Under the pieces are notes generated by a model. It saw only the letters and a list, made by a program, of their open reading frames with translations. It had not been told where the DNA came from and made no database searches. Positions 6,387 to 27,613 of a stretch of DNA of 32,000 nucleotides are shown here, in pieces. Source of the DNA: Candidatus Saccharimonadota bacterium (lineage in GTDB: Bacteria; Patescibacteriota; Gracilibacteria; BD1-5; UBA6164); the NCBI GenBank assembly GCA_963677765.1, contig OY782392.1, forward strand, positions 330,001 through 362,000. The letters run 5' to 3'. Every line of letters starts with the position of its first letter. The first letter of the stretch is position 1. The translations under genes and the position numbers were made by a program.

Positions 6387-8051
6387 ATGAATTTAAATAC
6401 TAGAATAACATGAGCTGCCTGAGCTTGAGTTAACTCTACTGTAGATATAATTGCTGAACTATATGCAGAATTAGGTTATGATTTGATTACTGATATAGAA
6501 TATGAATCAAGAATTAAATGATGAGTGAACTTTTTTGATGTAAATATATCAGATGAAAAAGAGTACTTTCTTACAAAATATGTTGATATTATCTTAGCTT
6601 TTAATGCTGAAAGTCTAGAAAAACAATTATCTAGTCTAAAAGATTGAGCAACAATTATTATCAACTCCAAATGGGTGAAAAAACTGGAAGAAAAATGAGT
6701 ATCTTTGGAAAAATATAATTTACTACAATTAGAAATAGCTGATAAATATGACAATACTTACCTATTATGAATTTATGCTAAATATTTAAATTTAGATATA
6801 AATATAATATTAGAAAAAATTGAAAAAATATTTCAAAGAAAATGAGAAGATACAGTTAATCACAACAAAGAAATAGTAAAAAATATATTTGAAACATATG
6901 AAATAAATAAAGCTAGTGAAATTCAAATAAAAAGAATATGAGAAGCTAAAACTTCTATATTTTGAAATAAATCATTAGCTAAATGAGCTATAGAAAACTG
7001 ATTAGAGTTCTATAGTGCATATCCAATGACACCAGCTTCTACTGTACTATCAGAAGTGATTAAAGACTGAAGAGTTAAATATATTCAAAATGAAGATGAA
7101 ATAGCAGTAATAAACTCTGCATTATGAGCAAGTTTTACTTGAGCAAGAGCTATGAGTGGTACTAGTGGTGGTTGATTTGCATTGATGAGTGAGGCTCTAA
7201 GTTTTGCTGTACAAGCTGAATTTCCTATTACAGTTGTATTATCTCAAAGAGCTGGGCCTAGTACTTGAACTCCTACATTTCATGAAGCATGAGACTTAAA
7301 TTACGCTTTAAATCCTACATTTGGTGATTTTGATCATGTAGTAATGTATCCTAGTAGTCTGGAAGAAGCTTATTATTTTGGTTGATTAGCTTTAAACATT
7401 GCTGATAAATACCAAACTCAAGTTATATTACTTATGGATAAACAATCAAGTGAATTACTTTGAACAGTAGATGAGTTAAAAACTCCTTGAATTGAAAGAT
7501 GAATTATTTTAGAAAATCCTCCAGTTGACTACAAAAGATATGAATTAAATGATTCATGAGTATCTCCTAGAGTAAAAGTCTGAACAAAAGATTGAGATTT
7601 TATAGCTACAAGTTATGAACATGATGAATTCTGAGCTACTACAGAAGACCCTGAAATGAAGAAAAAAATGACTGAAAAAAGGTTTAAAAAACTAGAAAAT
7701 TTCTTTGAAAAAGAAAAAATTTCTTGATATGAAGTAATAAATCCAGATGCTAAAAAAATGCTTATAGTTACTAGTTTTACTAGTTATACAGCTAAACATT
7801 TTGTAAAAAATAATCCAGATTTTGGTTTAATTATAATAAAAATATTAAAACCATTAGACGAAGAACTTAGAAAAGAAATAGAAAACAAAGAAGAAATTAT
7901 ATTCATAGAAAATAATTTTTCTGGTCAACTGGAAAAATACTTAACAAATGAATTTGGTCTAAAATATATTACTTGATTAAAAATATCAAGAATGAGAAAA
8001 TATGACCTATTCCCTTTTTATATAGAAGACTTTAACGAACTAAAAAAATAA
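6387..8051 (+). CDS. 2-oxoacid:ferredoxin oxidoreductase, fused gamma-alpha subunit (KorA/PorA-like)
   Basis: 554 aa. N-terminal gamma-like domain MNLNTRITGAAGAGVNSTVDIIAELYAELGYDL...YESRIKGG. Alpha core GNKSLAKGAIENGLEFYSAYPMTPASTVLSEV...[63 protein letters not shown]. TAA stop. Confidence 0.85.
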
Positions 8052-8054
8052 AAA

Positions 8055-8657
8055 ATGAGATCTTGATTAAATAATATACAATGGTGTGCTTGATGTTGAG
8101 ACACACTAATAATAGGAGCAATAAAAAAAGCTTTTGCAGAATTATGAATTGAATCTCATAATAGAGTAGTTGTTTCATGAGTAGGTTGTAGCTGAAAAGC
8201 AAGTCAATATATTGATTGATATGCAGCTGAAACTCTTCATGGTAGAACTCTTCCTTTTGCTACTTGAGTTAAAATGGCTAATCCTGATTTAACAGTATTA
8301 GCTACTGGATGAGATTGAGATGGTTATGGTATTTGAGTATGACATTTTGTACATGCTTGTAAAAGAGATTTAGATATAACTTATATAGTTATGGATAATG
8401 AAAACTATGCATTAACAACATGACAAGCAAGTCCTACTACTCCAGTATGAGCAAAAACAAAAACTACTCCAGATGGTAATACTTCTGCTCCTTTTGATCC
8501 TATAGCAATAGCACAAAATGCAGGATGTAGATTTGCAAAAACAGCTGATTCTATAAAATTCGTAGAAATGAAAGATATTATAAAAGAAGCTATTCAACAC
8601 AAAGGTTTTTCACTTGTAAATATACATCAAGCTTGTCCTAGTTTTAAAAGATGGTAA
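8055..8657 (+). CDS. 2-oxoacid:ferredoxin oxidoreductase, beta (TPP-binding) subunit, short form
   Basis: 200 aa. IQWCAGCGD (8082-8102; both Gly are TGA). TPP motif [48 protein letters not shown]. ATG lies 3 nt after the alpha-subunit stop. Confidence 0.85.
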
Positions 8658-8685
8658 AAAAACACTAATAAAAATAGTGTTTTTT
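8657..8685 (+). terminator. Rho-independent terminator after the OFOR operon
   Basis: Stem aaaaaacacta / tagtgtttttt, loop ataaaaa, T-run. Confidence 0.6.
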
Positions 8686-8741
8686 TTGATTTTATTTTAA
8701 TTATATGATTTAATATTATTAATAAATTTAATTTGAAGAAA

Positions 8742-8966
8742 ATGCTTAGAAAAGTAATAAAAAATTATTATAAATTATTTGATGAAAAAATTAATAATTG
8801 ATCAGTTATTGTTCTTATTATTTGATTTATGATTGCATGAGTTTGAAATATCGCAAACTGATATGAAACTACTTTTAATTATGCAAAAGCAAATACTATA
8901 GAATCAAAAATTGAATTAAATCAATATATTGAAGTAAATTGAAAAACATATAAATTAGTAAAATAA
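8742..8966 (+). CDS. Small membrane protein (74 aa), hypothetical
   Basis: MLRKVIKNYYKLFDEKINNGSVIVLIIGFMIAGVGNIANG... with one TM segment. ATG start, TAA stop. Confidence 0.4.
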
Positions 8967-8967
8967 A

Positions 8968-9010
8968 AAAGCCCCAAAACTAATGGTAATAACCAAAAAG
9001 TTGGGACTTT
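8968..9010. terminator. Possible bidirectional terminator between convergent genes
   Basis: aaagccccaa / ttgggacttt, 10-bp stem with one mismatch and a large loop, flanked by A-run and T-run. Confidence 0.35.
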
Positions 9011-9014
9011 TTTA

Positions 9015-9290
9015 TTATAAAAATTTTAATTCAAAATTATAATCATTCATTTCTATATACTTAATTTTATTATAAAAACTATCATATATATCATCATATA
9101 ATATTTTTGCTTCTGCATTTAAAATTGGCTTATTAGTCTTTATTAAAAGTGTTTTTCATCTAATTTGTACAGATACCATATAATCAGAAACATCTATAGA
9201 TTTTTTTTGCTTAAAAACATCAATAAAAGAATTCCATATTGATGTTTTTATAAATAACTCTTTTTTATCTTCGCTTAAATTTAATTTCAT
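9015..9290 (-). CDS. Small protein (91 aa), possibly DUF721/DciA-like
   Basis: MKLNLSEDKKELFIKTSIWNSFIDVFKQKKSIDVSDYMVSVQIRGKTLLIKTNKPILNAEAKILYDDIYDSFYNKI. The pattern (strand, G-x-L-x-I, then helix) resembles DUF721, but the match is weak. Starts 8 nt after the rsmI stop. Confidence 0.35.
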
Positions 9291-9297
9291 ATATATA

Positions 9298-9975
9298 CTA
9301 AAATAATACAACAAATTCTCATTTTACCTTTCAAGGATTAGACTCAAAATAAGTTAATACTTCTTCTACAGTTCCCCTATTAAATTCTTCAAATTTTTTA
9401 GTAAGTTCTCTAGCAACAACTATATTGTGGTCAGTTCAAAAGTATTCTCAAATTTCTCTTATAGTTTTTAATATTCTATGTACTGATTCATATATAACAA
9501 TAGTCTCTCATCATCATTTTGAATTTTTTCTATCTACAAGTGAATTAAAAAGTGTCTGTCTACCTTTTTTTAATGGTAAAAATCATAAATATAAAAAATG
9601 ATTCATTTGCATTCAACTTGCACAAAGAGCAGTGGTAAAAGCAGTAACTCATGGAATAGGAGTTATTTCTATCCCCTCTTGTAAAGCTTCTTTTATTAAA
9701 ACATATCAAGGATCACTTATTCAAGGAGTTCAAGCATCACTTATCAAAGCTATATTTTGTCAGTTTTTTAATTGTTCTATAATTTTTGTAGTTTTAGTTT
9801 TTCAAGAATGACTATGAAAACTTATAAGAGGTTTTTTAATATCATAATGATTAAGCAACTTTGAACTAGTTCTTGTATCTTCACAAGCTATAGAATCAAC
9901 TTCATTTAAAGTTTTTATTGCTCTATATGTAATATCATCTAGATTTCAAATTGGTGTAGCAACTATATATAACAA
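9298..9975 (-). CDS. rsmI: 16S rRNA (cytidine1402-2'-O)-methyltransferase
   Basis: 225 aa. (L)[45 protein letters not shown]...ALISDAGTPGISDPGYVLI...[16 protein letters not shown]...[14 protein letters not shown]...[12 protein letters not shown]. No in-frame ATG near the N-terminus, so a TTG start at 9975 is inferred. TAG stop. Confidence 0.88.
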
Positions 9976-10035
9976 GATATTTATTATTAAAAAATATTAT
10001 TTATAATATTTTACAAAGAAAAAATATAAAATCAA

Positions 10036-10071
10036 TTAATAAAGCCCTAAAATTAATTAGGGCTTTATTAA
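10036..10071 (-). terminator. Strong hairpin in the rsmI-upstream spacer
   Basis: 15-bp perfect stem ttaataaagccctaa / ttagggctttattaa, loop aattaa. Confidence 0.55.
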
Positions 10072-10217
10072 AAGTATATTAGTCTAAATCTTTTTATGCT
10101 ATTTTTTAATATTGCTATGAAAAATAAAAGTAATATAAAAAAAGACTATTAAAATTAATAATCTTTTTTATTATACTTACACTATATTAAAATTTTATTA
10201 AAATTTTAGAGTTTTTT

Positions 10218-10994
10218 TTAGAAATCTACTACTCAAATATTTGCTAATTTATAAATAATACAATTTTTCTCTTTAAAGTTTCACATTAATAATAATCTTG
10301 ATTTTTTAACATCAGAAAAATCTATTTTTCAATTATGTCTTTTTTCTCAAAGTACTTTCATTTCAATAATTTTTTCAAATAAATCAAAAAAATCATCATC
10401 TAATAAAACCTCTTTTATAAAAATATTTGAATCTAAAAACTCCATAAAAGAATTTGATAAAAATCATAATTTTTCTCATTCTTTTATATTTTTAATTAGT
10501 TGAAATAATCTTCATAATCAAAGTATATATCAACTATTTAATACTTGACTTAATGATTTTTCAAGTAAATCATTCTCTAGTTTATAATTATTTTTATATT
10601 TAGAATTAAAATACTTTCTAAATGGTTTTGTTACTTGTTCTTCAATCAATATATCCATTGATTTATGGTATGAGCTTATAACTCATAATCAATCTGTTGC
10701 TTTGTTTTTTGAAATACTATAATAAAGTATTTCTCATGATATTATATTTTCTATAACATCTGCAGACATAGAAGCAATTACATATTCTCAAAAAAAATCA
10801 TATATAGATTTTTCTAATATTTCTTCTATATTTTCTGAAAAAAAACTATCTTTTTGATCTTTTAGATGATAAGAAAATCTATCTTTTGAGATTCTATTTA
10901 TATAGTTTTTTACTTCCCTCTGCATCCAAAATTCTGCGATAGAAAGTTTTTGTTTTAATATCTTATTTTCTTCTATGATTTTATTTATATCCAA
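10218..10994 (-). CDS. Hypothetical protein (about 258 aa)
   Basis: Open frame from 11027 down to TAA at 10218-10220 with TGA = Gly. The track start at 10994 is TTG; ATT at 10997 or an internal ATG about 23 codons in are alternatives. Coiled-coil-like N-terminus INKIIEENKILKQKLSIAEFW. No motif recognised. Confidence 0.5.
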
Positions 10995-16021: not shown

Positions 16022-16570
16022 ATGTTAGAAAAAGCTCAGGAGTGAATAAAAAAAGCTATAAAACATTTAGAAGTAGAATATTCTAAACTACAATTAGGTA
16101 GAGCAAACCCAGCTATGGTAGAAGGGATATTAGTTGAACAATATGGTTCTATGCAACCGGTTCAAAATGTTGCTTCTGTTTCAAATCTAGATTCACAAAC
16201 ATTAAGTATAAAACCTTGGGATAAATGAGTTATTCATGCTATTGCAAAAGCAATAACTGACTCATGAATGGGTTTAAACCCTCAAACTATGGCTGATTCA
16301 GTTATGATAAAAGTACCTCCTTTAACAGAAGAAAGAAGAAAAGAAATATCAAAAGTAGCAAAAAATTTAGCTGAAGATGCTAAAATTTCTATAAGAAATG
16401 CTAGACAAGAATCTCTAAAAGTTATAAAAAAAGCTGAAGATGATAAGGAAATAAGTGAAGATATAAGAAAACAAAAAGAATCTGAATTACAAAAACTAAT
16501 CGAAGATGCAAACAAAAGTGTAGATGAACACTACAAACAAAAAGATGCAGATATTATGAAAATAAAATAA
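16022..16570 (+). CDS. frr: Ribosome recycling factor
   Basis: 182 aa. LEVEYSKLQLGRANPAMVEGILVEQYGSMQPVQNVASVSNLDSQTLSIKPWDKG...GLNPQTMADSVMIKVPPLTEERRKEISKVAKNLAEDAKISIRNARQE. Track ORF 16268..16570 is the C-terminal fragment. Confidence 0.92.
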
Positions 16571-16855: not shown

Positions 16856-16873
16856 TTTTTTTTGTAAAAAAAT

Positions 16874-16903
16874 AAAAAAAGAGACTAATTAGTCTCTTTT
16901 TTT
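16874..16903 (-). terminator. Terminator after yebC-like gene
   Basis: aaaaaaagagact aatt agtctcttttttt, immediately downstream of the minus-strand stop at 16905-16907. Confidence 0.65.
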
Positions 16904-16904
16904 A

Positions 16905-17675
16905 TTATGATCTAAAGCTATGCTTTTCTATATAGTCATCTACTTCTTTTTGTAATTCATCAGAAATTATTTCATTACTAGAAACAATATTAACATCTTC
17001 ATCTTCATTAAAAGCTTCTATCATTTTCACAAATTTTAAAGCTTTTTCAAATTCTGTAATTTCAGTATCATTTTCTGGAACAAAATCTAATTTAGATTCC
17101 ATTAATTCAATATCATTTTCTTCAAAAAATTTCTCTACAGATGTAAAATCTTCAACATCTGTTATTATTTTTATATAAGAAGATTCATTTATTATATCTT
17201 GAGCTCATCATTCTATAGCTAATTCTTCAATTTTTTCATAATCATATTTACTAGGGTCTATAAATATAACTCCCTTCCTATGAAACATCCAACTTACAGC
17301 TCATGTTTCTCACATATTTCAACCATATTTTGAAAATATATGTCTTATATTAGAAACTGTTCTATTTTTATTATCACTTAAAGTTTGAACCATTAAGGCA
17401 ACTCATCCTGGAGCATATCATTCATAAATAATTTCTTCTATTCTAGCAGCCTCTTTATCTTCTCAAGTTCATTTTTTTATAGCTCTTTCTATATTATCGT
17501 TAGGAACTCATGCTTTTTTTGCAGTATGAATAGCTGAATACAAAGAAGGATTTTGATCAGGATCTCATCATTTTTGTGCTGCTATAGCAATAAGCTTAGC
17601 ATGAACAGAAAATATTTTTCATTTAACTGCATTAACTGCATTTTTTCTAGCTTGTACAACTGGACCTCTTCACAT
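16905..17675 (-). CDS. yebC: YebC/PmpR family DNA-binding transcriptional regulator
   Basis: 256 aa. MGRGPVVQARKNAVNAVKGKIFSVHAKLIAIAAQKGGDPDQNPSLYSAIHTAKKAGVPNDNIERAIKKGTG...[50 protein letters not shown]. Track ORF 16905..17102 is the C-terminal fragment. Confidence 0.9.
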
Positions 17676-17763
17676 AAATTATTAATTATCAAGTATTAAA
17701 TATATTTTATAAAAAAGTGTTTATTTGTAAAGATTAAAAGAATACAGCAATTATATAAATTAC

Positions 17764-18042
17764 TTATAATAATATGTAATTATTTAAAGATAAATCCCTA
17801 AATCAATTATCATAAGAAAAACAACTTGTAATATAAAATGTTAATCTATCATCATAATTATAAATAAAATAAAGAGATATTTTATAAATATCATTTACTT
17901 TGTAAATATTTTCTTGTGCTAAAAACCTTCATGATATATTAACTATTCTTGATACTCAATTTAAAGTAATACAAATTTTATATCAATCAAAACTATTTTT
18001 ATAAAAAGAATCCAATATTTGTATAGAATTATTCATCTTCAT
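17764..18042 (-). CDS. Small hypothetical protein (92 aa)
   Basis: MKMNNSIQILDSFYKNSFDGYKICITLNGVSRIVNISGRFLAQENIYKVNDIYKISLYFIYNYDDRLTFYITSCFSYDNGFRDLSLNNYILL. ATG start, TAA stop. No motif recognised. Confidence 0.4.
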
Positions 18043-18094
18043 TTAAAATATTTTATAAAATTATATTATAAGTGATTAATTAATAGAGTAAAAT

Positions 18095-18125
18095 AAAAAA
18101 GAACATTTTAAAAATATTCTTTTTT
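18095..18125 (-). terminator. Hairpin at the 3' end of the T5orf172-domain gene
   Basis: aaaaaagaacatttt a aaaatattctttttt, a long A/T-rich stem with one mismatch that begins at the stop codon (18124-18126). Confidence 0.4.
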
Positions 18126-19689
18126 ATTTTATTATTAATTTTAAGTCATTAATTTCATTATCATCTAAATCAAACCACTCGCCCCTAATCCTTTTCTCTT
18201 GATATGTTTTATGTAAAGCTTGCTCAAAGGCTAATGCAATTTCTCTATTAGGAAATTTTTTATTCGTAATCATTTCAATTGCTGGCTTTTCACTTTGTAA
18301 GGTTTTTTCTCTATATTCTGGTTTATTAGATATTCATATTTTATGATATCAATTAATATTATCAAACATTAAATAAACATAACATTCTTTCTTTTCTACT
18401 ATAGATTTAATATTATATATTTCCTTTTCTTGTAATGGTTTATAATTATTAATGTTATCTGAGATAACTTTAATATAATCAGAAAATAATACTTTAGTTA
18501 TATAAATTAAATTATTATTTTTAATTCATTGTATTTTATTTCAACTGTTTGAAAAATCAACTTGCCAATTTTTAATACCATATTCCTTAATAGATATTAT
18601 TTCATCATAAGTAATTTTAACTTTTGTTTCATATATATTCTTTTCTATTTTATAAGATTTCTCATTTATACTAAATTCTAATAATTCTCAATTTGATAAT
18701 AAAAAAGTTATCTTATCCATTAAATATAGTTTAATATCATTATTTAAATATCTAAAAATTAAATAATCATTATTATCTAAATAATTTATAGTGAAATACA
18801 AATTATTTTTTCAATTTAAATCTATAAAAGATGATAAATTACTTTTATCATTAATAAAATATCATGATATATAACTAAAAAAACGCACTTGTTTTCAACC
18901 TACAAATTTCCATTTTATTTCTTTTTTTCATGTAAATTCATCTATTTTAACAATAGGGATATTTCTATATCTTTTAATTTTTAATTCATTTAGTTCTTCT
19001 TTGGTTGGCTTATTATGAATAATAAATAATTCATTTCATTCTTCTAAATTTCAATTTAGGAAATTATCTGATAATTCAAAAATTCAGTCAATTCATGAAT
19101 AAATAGACTCATATCAAAGTATATTATTTTCATTATAAAATAAATCAGCTTGTTCATATCAATTTTTTATTTTCATTTCTCAAATTAAATCTCACTTTTT
19201 AACTACATCTCAAGTATTAAAAAATATTTTTATACTTTCTCAATATTTATTTCTGGTATATATAACTTTATTATCATGTAAAGTTATATTTAACAATCTA
19301 AAATTATAAAAATTATAAATATTTTCTAAATTTTTATTAAAAGATAGACCATTTTTATGTAAAATATATACTAAATCTCAAGCTTCATAATAATAATTTG
19401 AATAATTTCATTTTTTAGCTTTATTTATTATTTCAAGAAATCAAGAATAACGCGATTTTTCATCAAAGTAATATTTACCATTATCATATTTTAATAATAT
19501 ATCCCCCTCTTTAACATAACATCAATTTTTACTATAAAAATCTTTTAAACTATCGTTACTCAAATTTAATTTATTTGGTGAATTAAATTTATAAAAATCT
19601 CTTGTATCAATACTTTTATTATAATCTATAATAATATGTATTACATAAATAATAATAACTAAAAAAAATAAAATAATAAAATAAAGCAT
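18124..19689 (-). CDS. Membrane-anchored protein with C-terminal T5orf172/MUG113 (GIY-YIG superfamily) domain
   Basis: 521 aa. N-terminal TM helix MLYFIILFFLVIIIYVIHIII. Two V-K-x-G-D motifs (GCYVKEGDILLKY, TGDVVKKGDLIGEMK) resemble barrel-sandwich/lipoyl-like hairpins. C-terminus CYVYLMFDNINGYHKIGISNKPEYREKTLQSEKPAIEMITNKKFPNREIALAFEQALHKTYQEKRIRGEWFDLDDNEI matches the T5orf172 pattern (YVY..KIG.....R...L....P.....E..lH..f...r..gEWF.l). Confidence 0.7.
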
Positions 19690-19714
19690 ATAATTTTGAT
19701 AAAAAATAAAATAA

Positions 19715-21058
19715 CTATAAATCTCTCAACATATTTCTAAACCATAGTTTATCTCAAAACAAATAAGTTAAATCATAATGAGCTCTTTCAATACTAACTC
19801 ATCTATCTATAACTCAGTCTGGTATTTTTTGTTTTTCTACAACTTCAGTTATCAAATTTAGTTTATCATTATGATTTCTTCATCTAGTTGGAAATTTTAC
19901 AGTTTCTATATTTGAAAATTTTGAAAAAAACAAGTATGAATAAAGATTAAGATTATCACTTTTGGAGTATAAAGAAGCTAGTTCTTTAGCTTTTAATAAA
20001 GTTTCTCCTCATAATTTTTTAGATTGTTCAATATGATGAGTCATTCAAGTTTTTATAGAGCTTTCTATTTCATTTTTTAAATCACTATATTCGCTTTTAT
20101 TTAAGTATTTTAAAGCTTTTAGGTAAGTTAATATATTAACATTCCTTTTTGAGTTAATTCAATACATAGAATCATAAAATAAGTCTACCCTATTTTTAGA
20201 TATCTTTATAATTTTTTCTAAATCATTTTTTAATTCATTTTCATCTCATAATCATGTATCTATTTCTCTAAATATACTTTCTATATTTTGAAATATATCA
20301 AAATACGAATCATCCATTTTTTCAATAATAGATTCATTATCTAATCATGAATTAAGTATAATTTTTTTAAAATCTGCTCTAAATTTTCTTTTTATGATTA
20401 GATCATTTACTACAACTGTACAAATATCTTTTTCTCAATATTTATGCTCAGCATAACATAATCAATTATTATATCTACAAAAATCTCACTCTCAAAAAAC
20501 TTCAAATAATATATCTGGAAACTCTAATACAATTGACTCTATTTCTTTTAGAGTAATCTCTCTACTTAAAATAACTTTGTTTATTTTATAATTATCTAAC
20601 ATAAACCTAATTGATTCCTTATTGTATAAGGCTAATATTGTAGAAATATTTATTTTTCAAGTATAATTAATTGATTTTAAATATTCTAATATAGAAATAT
20701 TTCAACATATTATTCAATCAATTCAAATATCTATAAAACTAGATACCATATCTTTTATATATGGCATAGTTTCATCAGTATAATACCATGCATTTAGGTT
20801 TATAAACAATTCATATCAATGTTTATGAACTTCTTCACAAACAAGTTTCAAAGTTTCAAAGTCAGTAATTTGTTCATGTTCTGAAAATCTACCATTAGGA
20901 CTTACTTCAAATCAAAATCTTGTATGCCATTCTGGAGGATTATAACCTGTAAAAAACTCTGTAGCTCATCACTCTACAAGACTAGAAACATATTTAGAAA
21001 CATCTTTTGAATTTTTACCTTTTACTGAAAATCAAAGTCAAACTATCTTTTTAAACAT
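19715..21058 (-). CDS. Peptidase U32 family protein
   Basis: 447 aa. GIDGIICGNISILEYLK...INISTILALYNKESIRFMLDNYKINKVILSREITLKEIESI, and EVFGEGDFCRYNNGLCYAE, which fits the U32 signature E-x-F-x2-G-x2-C-x4-G-x-C. TAG stop lies 26 nt before the next ATG. Confidence 0.6.
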
Positions 21059-21108
21059 AATTATTATTTAGTTTTTATTTATATGATTATACTTTTTAAA
21101 ACAAAAAA

Positions 21109-21130
21109 TAAAAGCCAAAATTGGCTTTTA
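21109..21130. terminator. Terminator after rpsU
   Basis: taaaagcc aaaatt ggctttta, flanked by A-run and T-run. Confidence 0.6.
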
Positions 21131-21148
21131 TTTTCATAGCAAAGTTGA

Positions 21149-21349
21149 TTAAAAATAAACTTTGTTATTTAGCATTCTGTAATGTTCTCTAACGATTGCT
21201 GAGTGTCTGATTTTTTTCTTAGTTGGTTTACCAACTGCATATCTTTCTGCTCTTAATTTGTTTGCAATTCTAGATTGAAAAAACATTTTTTTATATCTTA
21301 GAATCATTTTTTCGTTAGTTTCTCAGTCATTTCTTACTGCGTATATCAT
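21149..21349 (-). CDS. rpsU: 30S ribosomal protein S21
   Basis: 66 aa. MIYAVRNDGETNEKMILRYKKMFFQSRIANKLRAERYAVGKPTKKKIRHSAIVREHYRMLNNKVYF fits the S21 layout (V.V...E....alrrFKr.....g.l.e.r.r..yekPs..rk). Confidence 0.7.
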
Positions 21350-21451
21350 GCTTTCTATCCCCTTGAAGGAATTAAAAAATAATTGCTTCTAGCAAGCTAA
21401 AAGTAACAAGATTATATTTATCAAATAACATTTGTCAAAATTAAATAATTT

Positions 21452-23450: not shown

Positions 23451-23723
23451 TTATCTTACAGATTCTTTTAAAGTTTTACCAGCTCTAAATACAGGAGAAT
23501 TCATAGCAGGTATTTTAATTGGTTCTCTAGTTCTTGGATTTAATCCATTTCTAGCAGCTCTAGAAGAAACTTTAAATGCACCAAAACCAGTAATATTAAC
23601 TTCATTTCCAGCTTTTAATTCTGAAGTAATAACATCAATCATAGATGTTAAAGCTTTAGAAACAGCATCTTGGCTTAAACCAGCATCAGCAGCAACTGCT
23701 TTAATAAAATCTTGTTTTTTCAT
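23451..23723 (-). CDS. hup: DNA-binding protein HU
   Basis: 90 aa, intact even in the standard code. MKKQDFIKAVAADAGLSQDAVSKALTSMIDVITSELKAGNEVNITGFGAFKVSSRAARNGLNPRTREPIKIPAMNSPVFRAGKTLKESV. Confidence 0.93.
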   Translation of the reverse strand: MKKQDFIKAVAADAGLSQDAVSKALTSMIDVITSELKAGNEVNITGFGAFKVSSRAARNGLNPRTREPIKIPAMNSPVFRAGKTLKESVR

Positions 23724-23869: not shown

Positions 23870-24679
23870 TTAATTACTATATATAGAGTATCTTAATATA
23901 TTTAAAAATTCATTATTATCTAATTGGGTATTTAAATTTTGCCTATAATCCCCTACTTCTCAACTAGATATTATATTAAGAATTGGTTTAGTAAAAAATT
24001 CACTTGAAGATATTGTTGAAATTTCATAAACAATTTCTCAAGAGTTACTAGTATTATTTAATATTAAATAATTAGTATTAGACATTCCTAAAAATGTTGA
24101 TATTTCCTTCTCTGAATAAACTAATTGTCATAATCAATCTAATTTTTTTTCATTTCAAGAAGTTGTTAATCATTTTCATGACAATCAAGAGTTAGATCAA
24201 ACTATATTCCATGATAAATTATTCTCATCTCAAGATAATATTGATATATTATAATTAGAAATAGGATATTCACTTGATTCATCTAAATAAAATAAAGGTA
24301 TTATATCATATCATAATGGTTTAATAGTACCTTCATAGCTATTTACTTTTCAATCATTACTATAAAAGATTTTTACATCTCTTTTAGGATGAAATAAAGA
24401 CTTATCTAATGGATTTTCAGATAATATAACTGATTTATCATTTACTGTATCAGAAATTTCTCAAGCATAACCATATCAATATTTTTTTATTCATAATAAA
24501 GCTAATTCTTGAGAAGATTCTGCTCATGCAAAAGATTTCATATAATCTCACATAGCTCTATTTATTTTCATTTCATTTAATATCAATCTAAAAATTCAAA
24601 TTGATAAAACTAGTAAAAAACCTATTAATAATAACGCTACAATAGTTGAATATCATTTATTATTTTTTATATTTTTCAT
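23870..24679 (-). CDS. PilX-like minor pilin / pilus assembly protein
   Basis: 269 aa. MKNIKNNKG|YSTIVALLLIGFLLVLSIGIFRLILNEMKINRAMGDYMKSFAGAESSQELALL. Prepilin-like leader without Glu at +5, followed by a helix, as in PilX_N family proteins. Confidence 0.55.
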
Positions 24680-24682
24680 AAT

Positions 24683-25258
24683 TTAAAAAGGTCTATAATT
24701 TATAGTAGTTTGAAAATTTAATGTATTTTCTTCTATTTGAGTAGATTTAACTCAAGACTTTGTAGTTGGCATTAAAACCATTGATATTGTAACTTTTTTA
24801 GAAAATGTATCAGTAACAATAAAATTCAATTTTTTTATAGAAACTAAGCTATTAGTTATAGGAACTCAATTTTTTACAATATAACAATGGTCTTGTATAT
24901 TTCAACAGTCTGCATTACTAACTCTTATATAAGAACCTCAATTAAATTTTGCAATATAATATTCATCTGATGAAATACATAATTTAGTTCAAACCTTATA
25001 ATTATTAGATCAAGTATTAAAATCACAAGAATCGATATATGAATTTGAAACACCATCTATTCAGTTATTTATAACATTTTCAGATATATCAGTAAATACA
25101 TTTTTAGTATTTTCATGCATAGCTCTATTAATATCTGACTTTAATGAAGTATCTGAAGCCAATATATATATAGCCATTACAGATATCATTATCATAGAAA
25201 ATATAGTTACTCATATAACAACTTCTATAAGAGTAAATCAATTATTATTATTTTTCAT
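24683..25258 (-). CDS. Prepilin-type N-terminal cleavage/methylation domain protein (pseudopilin)
   Basis: 191 aa. MKNNNNG|FTLIEVVIGVTIFSMIMISVMAIY is a canonical G|FTLIE site, and its Gly is a TGA codon. Several Cys in the C-terminal globular part. Confidence 0.8.
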
Positions 25259-25259
25259 A

Positions 25260-25874
25260 TTAAAATCTTTTAAAATCTGTAAATATATTATTTAATTCAA
25301 ATTCATTATATCATCTACTGTACCATATAACTTTAGATTTTACGTTAAATGCTCAATCAATAATTTTAGTATTTACTCACTCTTTATATTCTACTGGTTC
25401 TATAGATATATACCTATAAAATGGAGTTTCTTTATTTCATATACAATCAAAAGTATATAAATTTTGTGAATTTAAACACAACCTGTAACTTTGCATTTTT
25501 GTAGATATTTCTGATTCTCACTCAGCAAAATCAATAATCTCACTAACTCTTACTGGAAAATTATCTGGGTTAGTAGAGAAATTATTTTCAATTCTATAAT
25601 TTTTTCAAATTTCAAATTGATTTGAATGATTATCTGTAGATGGATTTATTTGGTTATAAACTTGTATTTTTTCATAATTACTATCTCTAATATTCCTAAC
25701 AAGCTCAACTTGTTCCCTAGCAAGATTTGCTGCTATTATATAGTTTTTATTATAATCATTTAATTTTAACGTAGTTATAATAAGAGAGTAAACACTTATT
25801 ATTCAAATAGAGAAAATAAATATACCTATCATTATTTCTATTATAGAGAATCACGATTTATTTATATTTTTCAT
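25260..25874 (-). CDS. Prepilin-type N-terminal cleavage/methylation domain protein (PilV-like)
   Basis: 204 aa. MKNINKSG|FSIIEIMIGIFIFSIGIISVYSLIITTLKLNDYNKNYIIAANLAREQVELVRNIRD. Stop lies 1 nt before the next ATG. Confidence 0.75.
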
Positions 25875-25878
25875 AATT

Positions 25879-26448
25879 TTATTTATAATCTATTATATTA
25901 GTATTTGTATAGTAATTAAGCCTTGATTTTAAACTATCACTAGATGAGTTTTTATAAGATATAGTTATCTCTAATATATCATCTATTACTTCTATTTTAT
26001 TTCAAGAATTAAAAGTATAAATTTTTGATTTTCATGTAATAGATTCATAAAAAAATAATAAATTATCATAAGTTCATAAATCAACAATAGATACTCAATC
26101 TTGTAATTTTTTTTCTTTTATTAATTCTGTAAATCATCAAACACTATTAGTTATATTAATTTCTTCTATATCATAAGGATAACTAAAAAAATTTATTGTA
26201 TTTGATGTTAAAGGATCAGTTGTAATATATAATCATACTGATTTATTTGAATTATTACTAGTTATTCATCAAGTAGCCATATTTTTAGATTCATAAAAAC
26301 TTTGACTAATTTCACGAGATGCTATTTTTATTTTTGCCTTATTTTGATAATGACTATAAGGAACATAAGTCATAAGAGTTAATAAAACTACTATAGTAGA
26401 TGCAACTAGAAACTCCATAAGAGTGAAACCTTTAAGATTTTTTTTCAT
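25879..26448 (-). CDS. Prepilin-type N-terminal cleavage/methylation domain protein (GspH/FimT-like)
   Basis: 189 aa. MKKNLKG|FTLMEFLVASTIVVLLTLMTYVPYSHYQNKAKIKIASREISQSFYESKNMA. Confidence 0.75.
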
Positions 26449-26487
26449 AAAATAAAATTATTTTTTATATATTTTTTATTATAAAGA

Positions 26488-26523
26488 AAAAAGCCAGAAA
26501 TTAAAAATAATTTTTGGCTTTTT
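26488..26523 (-). terminator. Long hairpin between pilC and the pseudopilin genes (terminator or attenuator)
   Basis: aaaaagcca g aaatta aaaa taattt t tggcttttt, a compound stem that overlaps the pilC stop (26522-26524). Confidence 0.5.
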
Positions 26524-27613
26524 ATCAAACAGTTTGTGTTACTTGTAATATAGCACCGAATATAGCAAAAGAAAACCATAAAATAAATACTCATGATATT
26601 AAAATTGCAATTGGTTCTATCCATTTAGTTAATCTTGCTAAAGAGTAATCAACTTCCTTTTGATATTGTATATTAATTTTATGACATATAGATTCTAAAC
26701 TAGCAGTTTTTTCTCAAACTGATAACATTTGCAAATAATCCGAAGTAAAATATTCTTTATTTTCATCTATTTCTTCTATTGCATGAACAATTGTATCACC
26801 AGATGATACTTTTGATATTATATCATCAAAAATTGACATATAAACAACACTATTAGTAGCTTTTCAAACTAAGTTCAAACTCTTTACTATTCATATTCAA
26901 GATCAAACTAAACTAGATAAATTTGCTGCTATATTAGCTAAGATATAATTTTTATATATTTTTCATATTAAAGGAAAACTAAGAACAAAATTCTCTAAAG
27001 ATTCTTTTCAAGATTTTGTATTTTTGTATATCAAAAATAATACAAATATTGTAGAAAAGAAAAGTATTAAAATCCAATAATTTTGTATTATAAAATCAGA
27101 AGTTCAAATCAAGGCTTTAGTTGCAACTGGAAGTTCTACATCTGAATCTATAAATAATGGCTGAATAGCTGGTATAACATAAGCTAGAACTATTACTAGA
27201 GCCAAAATTAAAAATATAAAAATAATTAAAGGATATGTAAGAGCTCATTTAATTTTATTTTTAAGTTCATGCATTTTTTTTAAATCATCACTTAATTTCA
27301 TAAGTGACAATGATAATTGTCATGTTGTTTCTCATGCTTCAATTATAGAAATTTCAGATGAATCAAAAACATTAGGAATTTTCTTCATAGATTTTGAAAA
27401 TGAATCTCAAGAAGAAATATAAGTTATTAACTCTTTTATTTTTTGCTTAAAATAAATACTAGAAATTTTAGATTCTACTGATTTTAAAGCATCTGTTACT
27501 CATACTCATCAATCCAACATAACAGAAATATATTCATAAAAATTATATTTATCGATAATTCATACTTTTTTTCTGAATACTATTTCTTTATTTATATTAT
27601 TTTTTTCTTCCAT
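26522..27613 (-). CDS. pilC: Type II secretion system F family / type IV pilus platform protein PilC
   Basis: 363 aa. Two GspF repeats: FYEYISVMLDGGVGVTDALKSV...SEISIIEAGETTGQLSLSL and ANIAANLSSLVGSGIGIVKSLNLV...DYLQMLSVGEKTASLESI. Three TM segments (ALTYPLIIFIFLILALVIVLAYVIP, etc.). Confidence 0.85.

Follow-up and report, generated by a model that had tools for sequence, protein, structure and literature searches.

A membrane-anchored T5orf172-type protein inserted between two core genes of a code-25 Gracilibacterium: a candidate defence nuclease with a SNIPE-like mode

What does a protein with a C-terminal T5orf172/MUG113 nuclease-type domain do behind a transmembrane (TM) helix, among the housekeeping genes of a candidate phyla radiation (CPR) bacterium? 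The question is raised by a 521-amino acid (aa) protein encoded on the minus strand of a 32,000-nucleotide (nt) stretch of contig OY782392.1, called the window here, whose source organism, as judged by its U32 orthologues, is Candidatus Gracilibacteria. A first, sequence-only reading of the window had proposed a membrane-tethered nuclease for phage or DNA defence, and this stays the best reading. We give a probability of about one half to the protein being an accessory conflict or defence nuclease, tethered to the membrane, facing the cytoplasm and acting in a mode similar to that of the SNIPE defence protein. The N-terminal TM helix would hold the soluble part, with its nuclease, at the cytoplasmic face; a DNA nuclease without specificity would in this way be kept off the nucleoid and stand at the entry point of foreign DNA, and the non-catalytic domains would be the sensor or adaptor that licenses cleavage. 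We infer these roles of the lipoyl-like and immunoglobulin (Ig)-like domains described below, and any role of a neighbouring 92-aa open reading frame (ORF).

The C-terminal domain matched two Pfam models above their cut-offs, as proposed from the sequence for residues ~440-520: MUG113 (PF13455; 42 bits, cut-off 22.3, E 1.5e-10, aa 449-516) and T5orf172 (PF10544; 33.3 bits, cut-off 20, E 7e-8, aa 437-516). Both models were also matched by 72/72 homologs scanned, which are the family members referred to below. Residues Y439, K450, R460, E461, E489, H493, R502, E504 and W505 are invariant in the 72-sequence alignments, and at YVY 437-439, KIG 450-452, R460 and E504 (in RGEWF) there is no or almost no variation in either the 72- or the 92-sequence alignments. 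The spacing of Y439, R460 and E504 fits the GIY-YIG pattern of a Tyr, an Arg ~8 residues past the second motif and a distal Glu, and these three would be the catalytic residues. T5orf172 is a GIY-YIG subfamily for which Glu-dependent nuclease activity has been recorded (PMC10448857; PMC8096241). Only T5orf172, MUG113 and Bro-C matches were obtained among the viral models of BFVD (probability 1.00, root-mean-square deviation 2.2-2.7 A over 85-90 columns, 31-36% identity), and no solved GIY-YIG structure in the PDB was recovered by profile or fold searches. The protein is predicted to be a nuclease with DNA as its target.

The predicted N-terminal TM helix was confirmed at aa 2-23. It is followed by two putative lipoyl-like barrel-sandwiches (~aa 50-115 and ~aa 150-230), a beta-hairpin with an Ig-like beta-sandwich (~aa 244-390, the beta-sandwich itself being modelled at ~aa 289-390), a long helix (aa 392-412) and the alpha/beta T5orf172/MUG113 domain (aa 436-521). 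The alignment-based AlphaFold2 model has a mean predicted local distance difference test score (pLDDT) of 75, with values >90 over most of residues 240-520, and its middle region is a beta-sandwich with no coiled coil. There are only two Cys in the 521 residues. Fold searches of the PDB returned nothing at E <= 0.001 for the full model, and for the pLDDT-94 model of a 288-aa minimal member they returned only generic Ig, fibronectin type III and carbohydrate-binding-module sandwiches, none of them at E <= 0.001.

The sequence-only reading had pointed to two V-K-x-G-D hairpin motifs as typical of lipoyl-like folds. The motifs are present (VKEGD 59-63 and VKKGD 163-167); the fold is sub-threshold in the window protein (Biotin_lipoyl_2, E 4.6e-4, 20.4 bits versus a cut-off of 29.8) and is supported at the family level. 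Biotin_lipoyl (PF00364) was matched by 21/72 family members (best E 6.6e-8), Biotin_lipoyl_2 by 6/72 and PYNP_C by 3/72, and a PDB search with the family profile found only lipoyl domains, those of solved E2 proteins (E 2.4e-4). Because of these member matches and the profile match to E2 domains, the lipoyl-like assignment holds for the family. The modifiable Lys at the hairpin tip (DKA or MKM) is not conserved in the family consensus, the E2 DKA being aligned to a variable insertion. Since no modifiable Lys is conserved, the module probably carries no cofactor and has a structural or interaction role instead.

On which side of the membrane would the nuclease lie? No charged residue, and so no Lys or Arg (K/R), precedes the TM helix of the 521-aa protein, versus 3-4 K/R within the 15-20 residues after it. 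Single-TM relatives likewise have K/R on the core side of the helix, in two-TM hairpin forms each end is flanked by K/R-rich stretches, and TM helix and signal peptide are both missing from most family members. From the positive-inside rule, and because most members are without TM helix or signal peptide, the protein is predicted to be N-out/C-in with its soluble part, nuclease domain included, in the cytoplasm. The anchors vary in the family, being single helices, two-TM hairpins or DUF805 domains; N-terminal TM segments were found in 31/150 representatives, and in 29/76 among proteins of at least 450 aa.

This orientation bears on the alternative, also raised by the sequence-only reading, that the protein processes host or environmental DNA. 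An outward-facing anchored nuclease would then degrade such DNA for uptake, as nucleotide scavenging by an episymbiont. Gracilibacteria rely on scavenged nucleotides, a type IV pilus/pseudopilin cluster is present in the window (23870..27613), and barrel-sandwiches are also found in periplasmic adaptors, with a weak EmrA-like match at aa 3-76 (E 4e-4). However, the N-terminus is without a positive n-region and the K/R follow the helix, 79% of representatives have no TM helix or signal peptide, the two-TM hairpin forms put the core on the side of the K/R-rich N-terminus, and the gene is missing from most Gracilibacteria, unlike a core feeding function. We consider scavenging very improbable.

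The predicted cytoplasmic, tethered arrangement has a characterized precedent. SNIPE (PD-lambda-1) has an N-terminal TM helix, N-out, a central DUF4041 domain and a C-terminal GIY-YIG nuclease; its DUF4041 binds both DNA and the tape-measure protein of the phage, and SNIPE cuts phage DNA at injection (PMC13190303). SNIPE without its TM helix is toxic, and its homologues have a variable N-terminal region, with one TM helix in 59% of them (PMC13190303). In the HHpred table for SNIPE, T5orf172 is assigned to aa 357-448 and MUG113 to aa 373-449 (supplement of PMC9519451). The layout of the 521-aa protein had been thought undescribed, which did not hold: SNIPE combines a TM helix, DUF4041 and T5orf172 (PMC13190303), and the core of the 521-aa protein recurs in ~420 representatives, with a TM segment in 31 of the 150 inspected. 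A membrane-anchored T5orf172 nuclease is thus already described in SNIPE, and what differs here is the middle module. By analogy, the 521-aa protein plausibly works like SNIPE, yet it is no detectable member of the SNIPE family.

The reading of the locus depends on the genetic code. ORF calling with table 11 gave only fragmented ORFs in the window (GC ~21%), with 5 long ORFs of 466 aa in total; this table was dropped and code 25 (UGA = Gly) was used instead. With TGA as a sense codon, 38 long ORFs of 9264 aa in total were obtained. TGA codes for the glycine pair in the 'KGGDP' motif that is conserved in YebC, and also for Gly202 and Gly452 of the 521-aa protein, two positions where at least 90% of the aligned homologs have Gly. 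The code was set as 25 because the ORFs were restored and because TGA is found at the YebC glycine pair and at the near-invariant Gly202 and Gly452. The tRNA and Rfam scans of the window gave 0 matches, hence no tRNA-Gly(UCA) to back code 25. The 521-aa gene is fully adapted to this code, with 23 in-frame TGA = Gly codons that make up 79% of its Gly codons and a GC content at third codon positions (GC3) of 0.088, like that of neighbouring genes; the 92-aa ORF has 4 TGA = Gly codons. In most other window genes TGA accounts for 70-100% of Gly codons. The HU gene (23451..23723, minus strand) has 0 TGA versus 6 GGN, and in the ribosome-recycling-factor gene (16022..16570, plus strand) TGA makes up only 43% of Gly codons. 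The reassigned codon may be avoided by highly expressed genes.

Under code 25 the coordinates given in the first reading proved correct, and the U32, 521-aa and 92-aa genes all lie on the minus strand. The locus, in the order of transcription, is as follows:

19715..21058, minus strand: U32-family gene, 447 aa (PF01136, E 4.5e-19, aa 98-211)
19690..19714, minus strand: spacer of 25 nt between the U32 and 521-aa genes, without hairpin (fold and terminator scan)
18124..19689, minus strand: gene for the 521-aa accessory protein (code 25 ORF)
18127..18381, minus strand: coding region of the T5orf172/MUG113 domain, aa 437-521 (Pfam, alignments, BFVD)
18090..18130, minus strand: 19-bp A/U-rich hairpin on the stop codon of the 521-aa gene (folding free energy, dG, -15.8 kcal/mol)
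17764..18042, minus strand: 92-aa orphan ORF (code 25 ORF)
17676..17763, minus strand: spacer of 88 nt before YebC, downstream border of the insertion (comparison with the relatives L086-L088)
16905..17675, minus strand: YebC/TACO1-family gene (PF01709, E 1e-51; PF20772, E 9.5e-23)

In DNA of the window's composition, a frame would stay open by chance over 521 codons with a probability of ~1e-22, and over 92 codons with one of ~1e-4. The spacer between the U32 and 521-aa genes is indeed free of any hairpin (dG -0.6 kcal/mol, z 0.22), as first noted, although it is 25 and not 26 nt long, and no terminator-like site was found in it by the terminator scan. Read-through from U32 into the 521-aa gene is plausible because of where the insert landed. 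The hairpin noted at the end of the 521-aa ORF proved real: at its dG of -15.8 kcal/mol it has a z of -4.71, and 0/200 shuffles fold as well. It was not called by the strict GC-based terminator scan and is a candidate, terminator-like by its fold. The only strict terminator-like sites near the locus are at 21135..21104, upstream of U32, and at 16906..16871, after YebC. The spacer between the 521-aa and 92-aa ORFs is 81 nt long. Promoter-like sites are present ahead of the 92-aa ORF (TTTACT-16-TATAAT, 18092..18065) and in the spacer before YebC (TTTACA-16-TAAAAT, 17731..17704); such calls are suggestive only, 53 sites having been found in the window versus 52.4 expected by chance.

Does the 521-aa gene belong with its U32 neighbour? 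Three Gracilibacteria relatives, L086, L087 and L088, share the backbone of the window, with pilins, HU, HATPase-like, FtsQ-like, RbfA, a 66-aa ORF, U32, YebC and ribosome-recycling factor. In 3/3 of them only 63-64 nt lie between U32 and the YebC gene behind it, and the 521-aa and 92-aa genes are absent. The promoter-like TCTTTACAA...TATAAAAT of their U32/YebC spacer is retained in the window just upstream of YebC. Because U32 directly abuts YebC in L086-L088, the 521-aa and 92-aa genes are an accessory insertion of ~2 kb (~17736..19714, minus strand) between core U32 and YebC. The locus is therefore accessory among housekeeping genes, as first proposed, and the 521-aa gene is not universally conserved at this position.

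U32 itself was found full-length in >100 Gracilibacteria entries at 61-77% identity; it belongs to the core genes of Gracilibacteria and borders the insertion on the upstream side, outside the accessory unit. The sequence-only reading had suggested that the two genes may be co-transcribed. If they also worked together, the 521-aa protein would be U32's partner in an operon and might, for instance, act with a U32-type hydroxylase of RNA or quinones. The 25-nt gap without hairpin makes co-transcription plausible, and the adjacency is kept in the relative L002. But U32 abuts YebC in the three syntenic relatives and is core where the 521-aa gene is patchy, and U32 is missing from the surroundings of all 80 Bacteroidota homologs and of the code-25-type relative L004. 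Neighbours of the U32 or 92-aa-ORF type were found at 0/80 Bacteroidota loci and, of 85 loci, only in the window's own lineage. A functional partnership is effectively refuted by synteny: the adjacency is an accident of the insertion site and the two genes form no operon.

Other features of this backbone may be recorded here. U32 has weak UbiU/TrhP-like NCBIfam matches. It matches only positions 1-112 of 233 of PF01136, and its C-terminal ~230 aa have no family match and are highly conserved across the phylum. What we take to be the PROSITE-like U32 motif E-x-F-x-x-G-x-x-C-x(4)-G-x-C is visible as EVFGEGDFCRYNNGLC. The 66-aa basic ORF (21149..21349, minus strand) keeps its place between RbfA and U32 in every relative, with a perfect TTGACA-16-TATAAT consensus upstream (21438..21411) and a strong terminator downstream (21135..21104). 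A guess that it is ribosomal protein S21 found no Pfam match and was dropped. The type IV pilus or competence-like cluster beside the locus (23870..27613, minus strand) consists of four prepilin-type (N_methyl-like) genes and a T2SSF/PilC-like gene, and its order is kept in L086-L088 (N_methyl and T2SSF matches in the relatives).

How did the insert arrive? The closest relative of the 521-aa protein (57% identity), found in L002 and L003, is alone in having U32, then the homolog, then a small ORF; its flanks downstream of that ORF are unlike those of the window. The insert of L002/L003 is bracketed by a 24-nt direct repeat (23/24 identical) that corresponds to the last codons of U32:

L002, 3775-3798 and 5739-5762: direct repeat copies
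L003, 74-88 and 2038-2052: direct repeat copies

The repeat looks like an att-type or target-duplication scar. No recombinase was found in the L002/L003 insert, and a second copy of a flanking repeat was looked for in the window and not found. A perfect terminator hairpin follows the distal repeat copy in L002/L003. The homolog there (L002 3820-5396) is conserved over its full length and is split over three frames by two frameshifts, one of them in a T-run inside the TM-coding region. The L002 and L003 assemblies are 100% identical over 2130 nt and have the same frameshifts, which reflect either a true pseudogene or a homopolymer error common to both. The other code-25-type relative, L004 (50% identity), has no TM helix and no U32 gene, and in it an unrelated 87-aa ORF is followed by a RhuM-family gene.

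These features raise the main alternative, a selfish homing-type element, whose free-standing endonuclease would have cut the U32-YebC junction of a naive genome and then, along with the 92-aa ORF, been copied into it through repair, with no benefit to the cell. T5orf172 genes are abundant as free-standing phage homing endonucleases beside conserved or essential genes, their presence varies and they are often frameshifted (PMC10448857). The 521-aa gene lies precisely between two core genes, L086-L088 lack it, and the L002/L003 insert has both the direct repeat of the U32 3' end and the split homolog. However, 87% of T5orf172 homing endonucleases have Zn-finger DNA-binding domains (PMC10448857), and the 521-aa protein has two Cys and no such domain; neither it nor the 72 members gave a Pfam match to Zn-finger CapR/DUF723/DUF4397, Bro-N or KilA-N. 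A TM anchor fits poorly with the cutting of a chromosomal target, a non-nuclease core of ~280-360 aa is conserved across phyla at ~40% identity, and the full core was found in only 1/80 kept viral-contig loci. The window copy, moreover, is intact and without flanking repeat, and a second gene was inserted with it. We therefore judge a homing-type element unlikely. NixI, at first taken for a T5orf172 nuclease, is actually an HNH nuclease and was dropped as evidence.

The second inserted gene suggests a toxin-immunity or addiction pair, in which the 521-aa nuclease would serve as toxin, with the 92-aa orphan for antidote or regulator, so that loss would be lethal. The two genes were inserted together and co-occur in L002/L003, the only other TM-anchored code-25 locus, where a homolog of the 92-aa ORF, 36-40% identical, occupies the same position; it is absent from L086-L088. 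The 92-aa ORF has its own promoter-like site, and the toxicity of TM-less SNIPE indicates that a nuclease of the T5orf172 type is capable of toxin action. Against this, a search of 5.8 billion proteins for homologs of the 92-aa ORF found only its own record, no homolog is beside any of the 80 Bacteroidota loci, L004 has the unrelated 87-aa ORF at that position, no partner is conserved across the family, and a strong hairpin separates the two genes. An addiction pair is, in our view, distinctly unlikely.

The distribution of the family was explored at several depths. A first search with the 521-aa protein returned 305 homologs, mostly from Bacteroidota and labelled 'GIY-YIG nuclease family protein', which cover query residues ~240-521 (a universal core), in many cases 160-521 and in some 36-520. 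When 1.84 billion cluster representatives were searched exhaustively with a profile, 420 matched at E <= 1e-30, and a scan of one genome per species gave 80 loci, almost all in Bacteroidota. The conserved core of the family is one or two lipoyl-like barrel-sandwiches, the Ig-like beta-sandwich, the long helix and the C-terminal T5orf172 domain. On viral contigs nearly all matches are to the T5orf172 module alone and the core was spanned in 1/80 kept loci; because the full core is nearly absent there, the family is essentially cellular. The single kept viral-contig locus with the beta-sandwich and T5orf172 core is L089 6001-6780 (IMGVR_UViG_3300008150_000404; aa 241-519, 31% identity), the viral nature of which is putative. 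Only two code-25-type relatives of the 521-aa protein were found, at 57% and 50% identity, the next being Bacteroidota at ~40%, and the three code-25 copies form one exclusive clade. Since the clade is exclusive, 79% of the Gly codons are TGA and GC3 is typical, the gene was acquired long ago, within or into the code-25 lineage, and not imported recently from a code-11 organism.

Genomic context gives some support for a defence role. In a rumen Bacteroidales subclade the family gene is located 7 nt upstream of an Abi_C/AbiJ-like gene of 252 aa, followed by an AAA_15/AAA_21 ATPase that is the PADLOC candidate PDC-M29A (E 2e-49):

~7600-10400, in L053, L056, L061, L065 and related loci: AbiJ-like/PDC-M29A neighbourhood

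This rumen cluster may be a composite defence island. The RhuM-family neighbour in L004 also counts in favour of a defence context. The other Bacteroidota neighbourhoods have unrelated housekeeping genes, IS200-like transposases or Fic genes. Overall, the association of the family with defence is suggestive but limited. PADLOC on the 72 members gave only PDC-S57 (33), CARF3 (1) and PDC-S02 (1), and no PD-lambda-1; we found no literature on PDC-S57, nor on DUF4041 together with T5orf172.

Several observations weigh against a SNIPE-like defence role. DUF4041 (PF13250) was not found at E <= 1 in the 521-aa protein nor at E <= 0.01 in the 72 members, and PADLOC, a check called for by the sequence-only reading, gave no match at E <= 1 for the 521-aa protein and none for the three window proteins. 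The PDC-S57 candidate matches, the best of them at E 2e-5, are weak and may stem from the shared nuclease domain alone. Most Bacteroidota neighbourhoods have no conserved partner or defence island, and with 79% of family representatives lacking a membrane anchor, tethering is no defining trait. The frameshifts of the L002/L003 homolog count on the same side, as does the low confidence of the N-terminal third of the modelled sequence, which had Trp at the 23 TGA positions. The defence reading of the family is drawn from sequence and from analogy with SNIPE.

With these points weighed, a tethered, cytoplasm-facing defence nuclease is still the reading that we prefer for the window protein. More tentatively, the whole lipoyl-like, Ig-like and T5orf172 family could be an unrecognised, widespread single-gene system against phages or mobile genetic elements, a DUF4041-less counterpart of SNIPE with the barrel-sandwich and Ig-like domains as sensor or adaptor; the window copy would then be among the first candidate innate, entry-point DNA-cleaving defences in code-25 CPR, derived from one ancient transfer and the later gain of a membrane anchor. 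This broader proposal is possible but doubtful. If the SNIPE-like reading is true, membrane-tethered T5orf172 defence is wider than the DUF4041 family, its sensor modules are interchangeable, and the strategy extends to ultra-small recoded members of the CPR, about whose immune repertoire little is known. In any case a family of ~420 clusters is now defined, with a confidently modelled beta-sandwich, and can be tested in culturable Flavobacterium species. For annotation, the adjacency to U32 is a reminder that gene order may reflect an insertion site and no operon.

How, finally, does the 521-aa protein compare with known systems? True homology links it to the Bacteroidota family (for example P0006 and P0039, a 479-aa protein of Flavobacterium yafengii), with 31-47% identity over query ~36-520 or 160-520, the same domain order and invariant nuclease motifs. 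The window copy differs in its host, a Gracilibacterium, and in its recoding with 23 TGA = Gly; it has a single-TM anchor, where any TM is found in only 31/150 representatives and some of these are DUF805 or two-TM forms; and it comes with a lineage-specific 92-aa ORF. With the barrel-sandwiches of lipoyl/biotinyl domains, HlyD/EmrA adaptors and M23 peptidases the family shares the V-K-x-G-D hairpin signature, but it lacks the conserved modifiable Lys at the hairpin tip of the lipoyl/biotinyl carriers. The phage T5orf172 homing endonucleases (ICP1 Gp53/121/130 and T5-like; PMC10448857) and Bro-C/MUG113 proteins have the same C-terminal domain, and the homing endonuclease genes, like the 521-aa gene, vary in presence and lie beside conserved genes. 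The phage proteins are phage-borne and have Zn-finger (CapR/DUF723/DUF4397), Bro-N or KilA-N modules, whereas the 521-aa protein has no DNA-binding module, has a TM anchor and belongs to a cellular family.

The closest characterized system is SNIPE (E. coli ECOR26, RCP76574.1). Differences are found in the middle, where the 521-aa protein has two putative lipoyl-like barrel-sandwiches and an Ig-like beta-sandwich in place of a short coiled-coil DUF4041, in the solubility of most members of its family, and in its host, a code-25 CPR bacterium. Nevertheless, both proteins have a single TM helix near the start, and the N-out/C-in topology shown by experiment for SNIPE is predicted for the 521-aa protein; in both, a non-catalytic middle module is followed by a long helix and then by a T5orf172/MUG113-type GIY-YIG nuclease with its conserved Glu. 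Both are single-gene accessory loci, and in both the N-terminus varies across homologues while the nuclease is the most conserved part.

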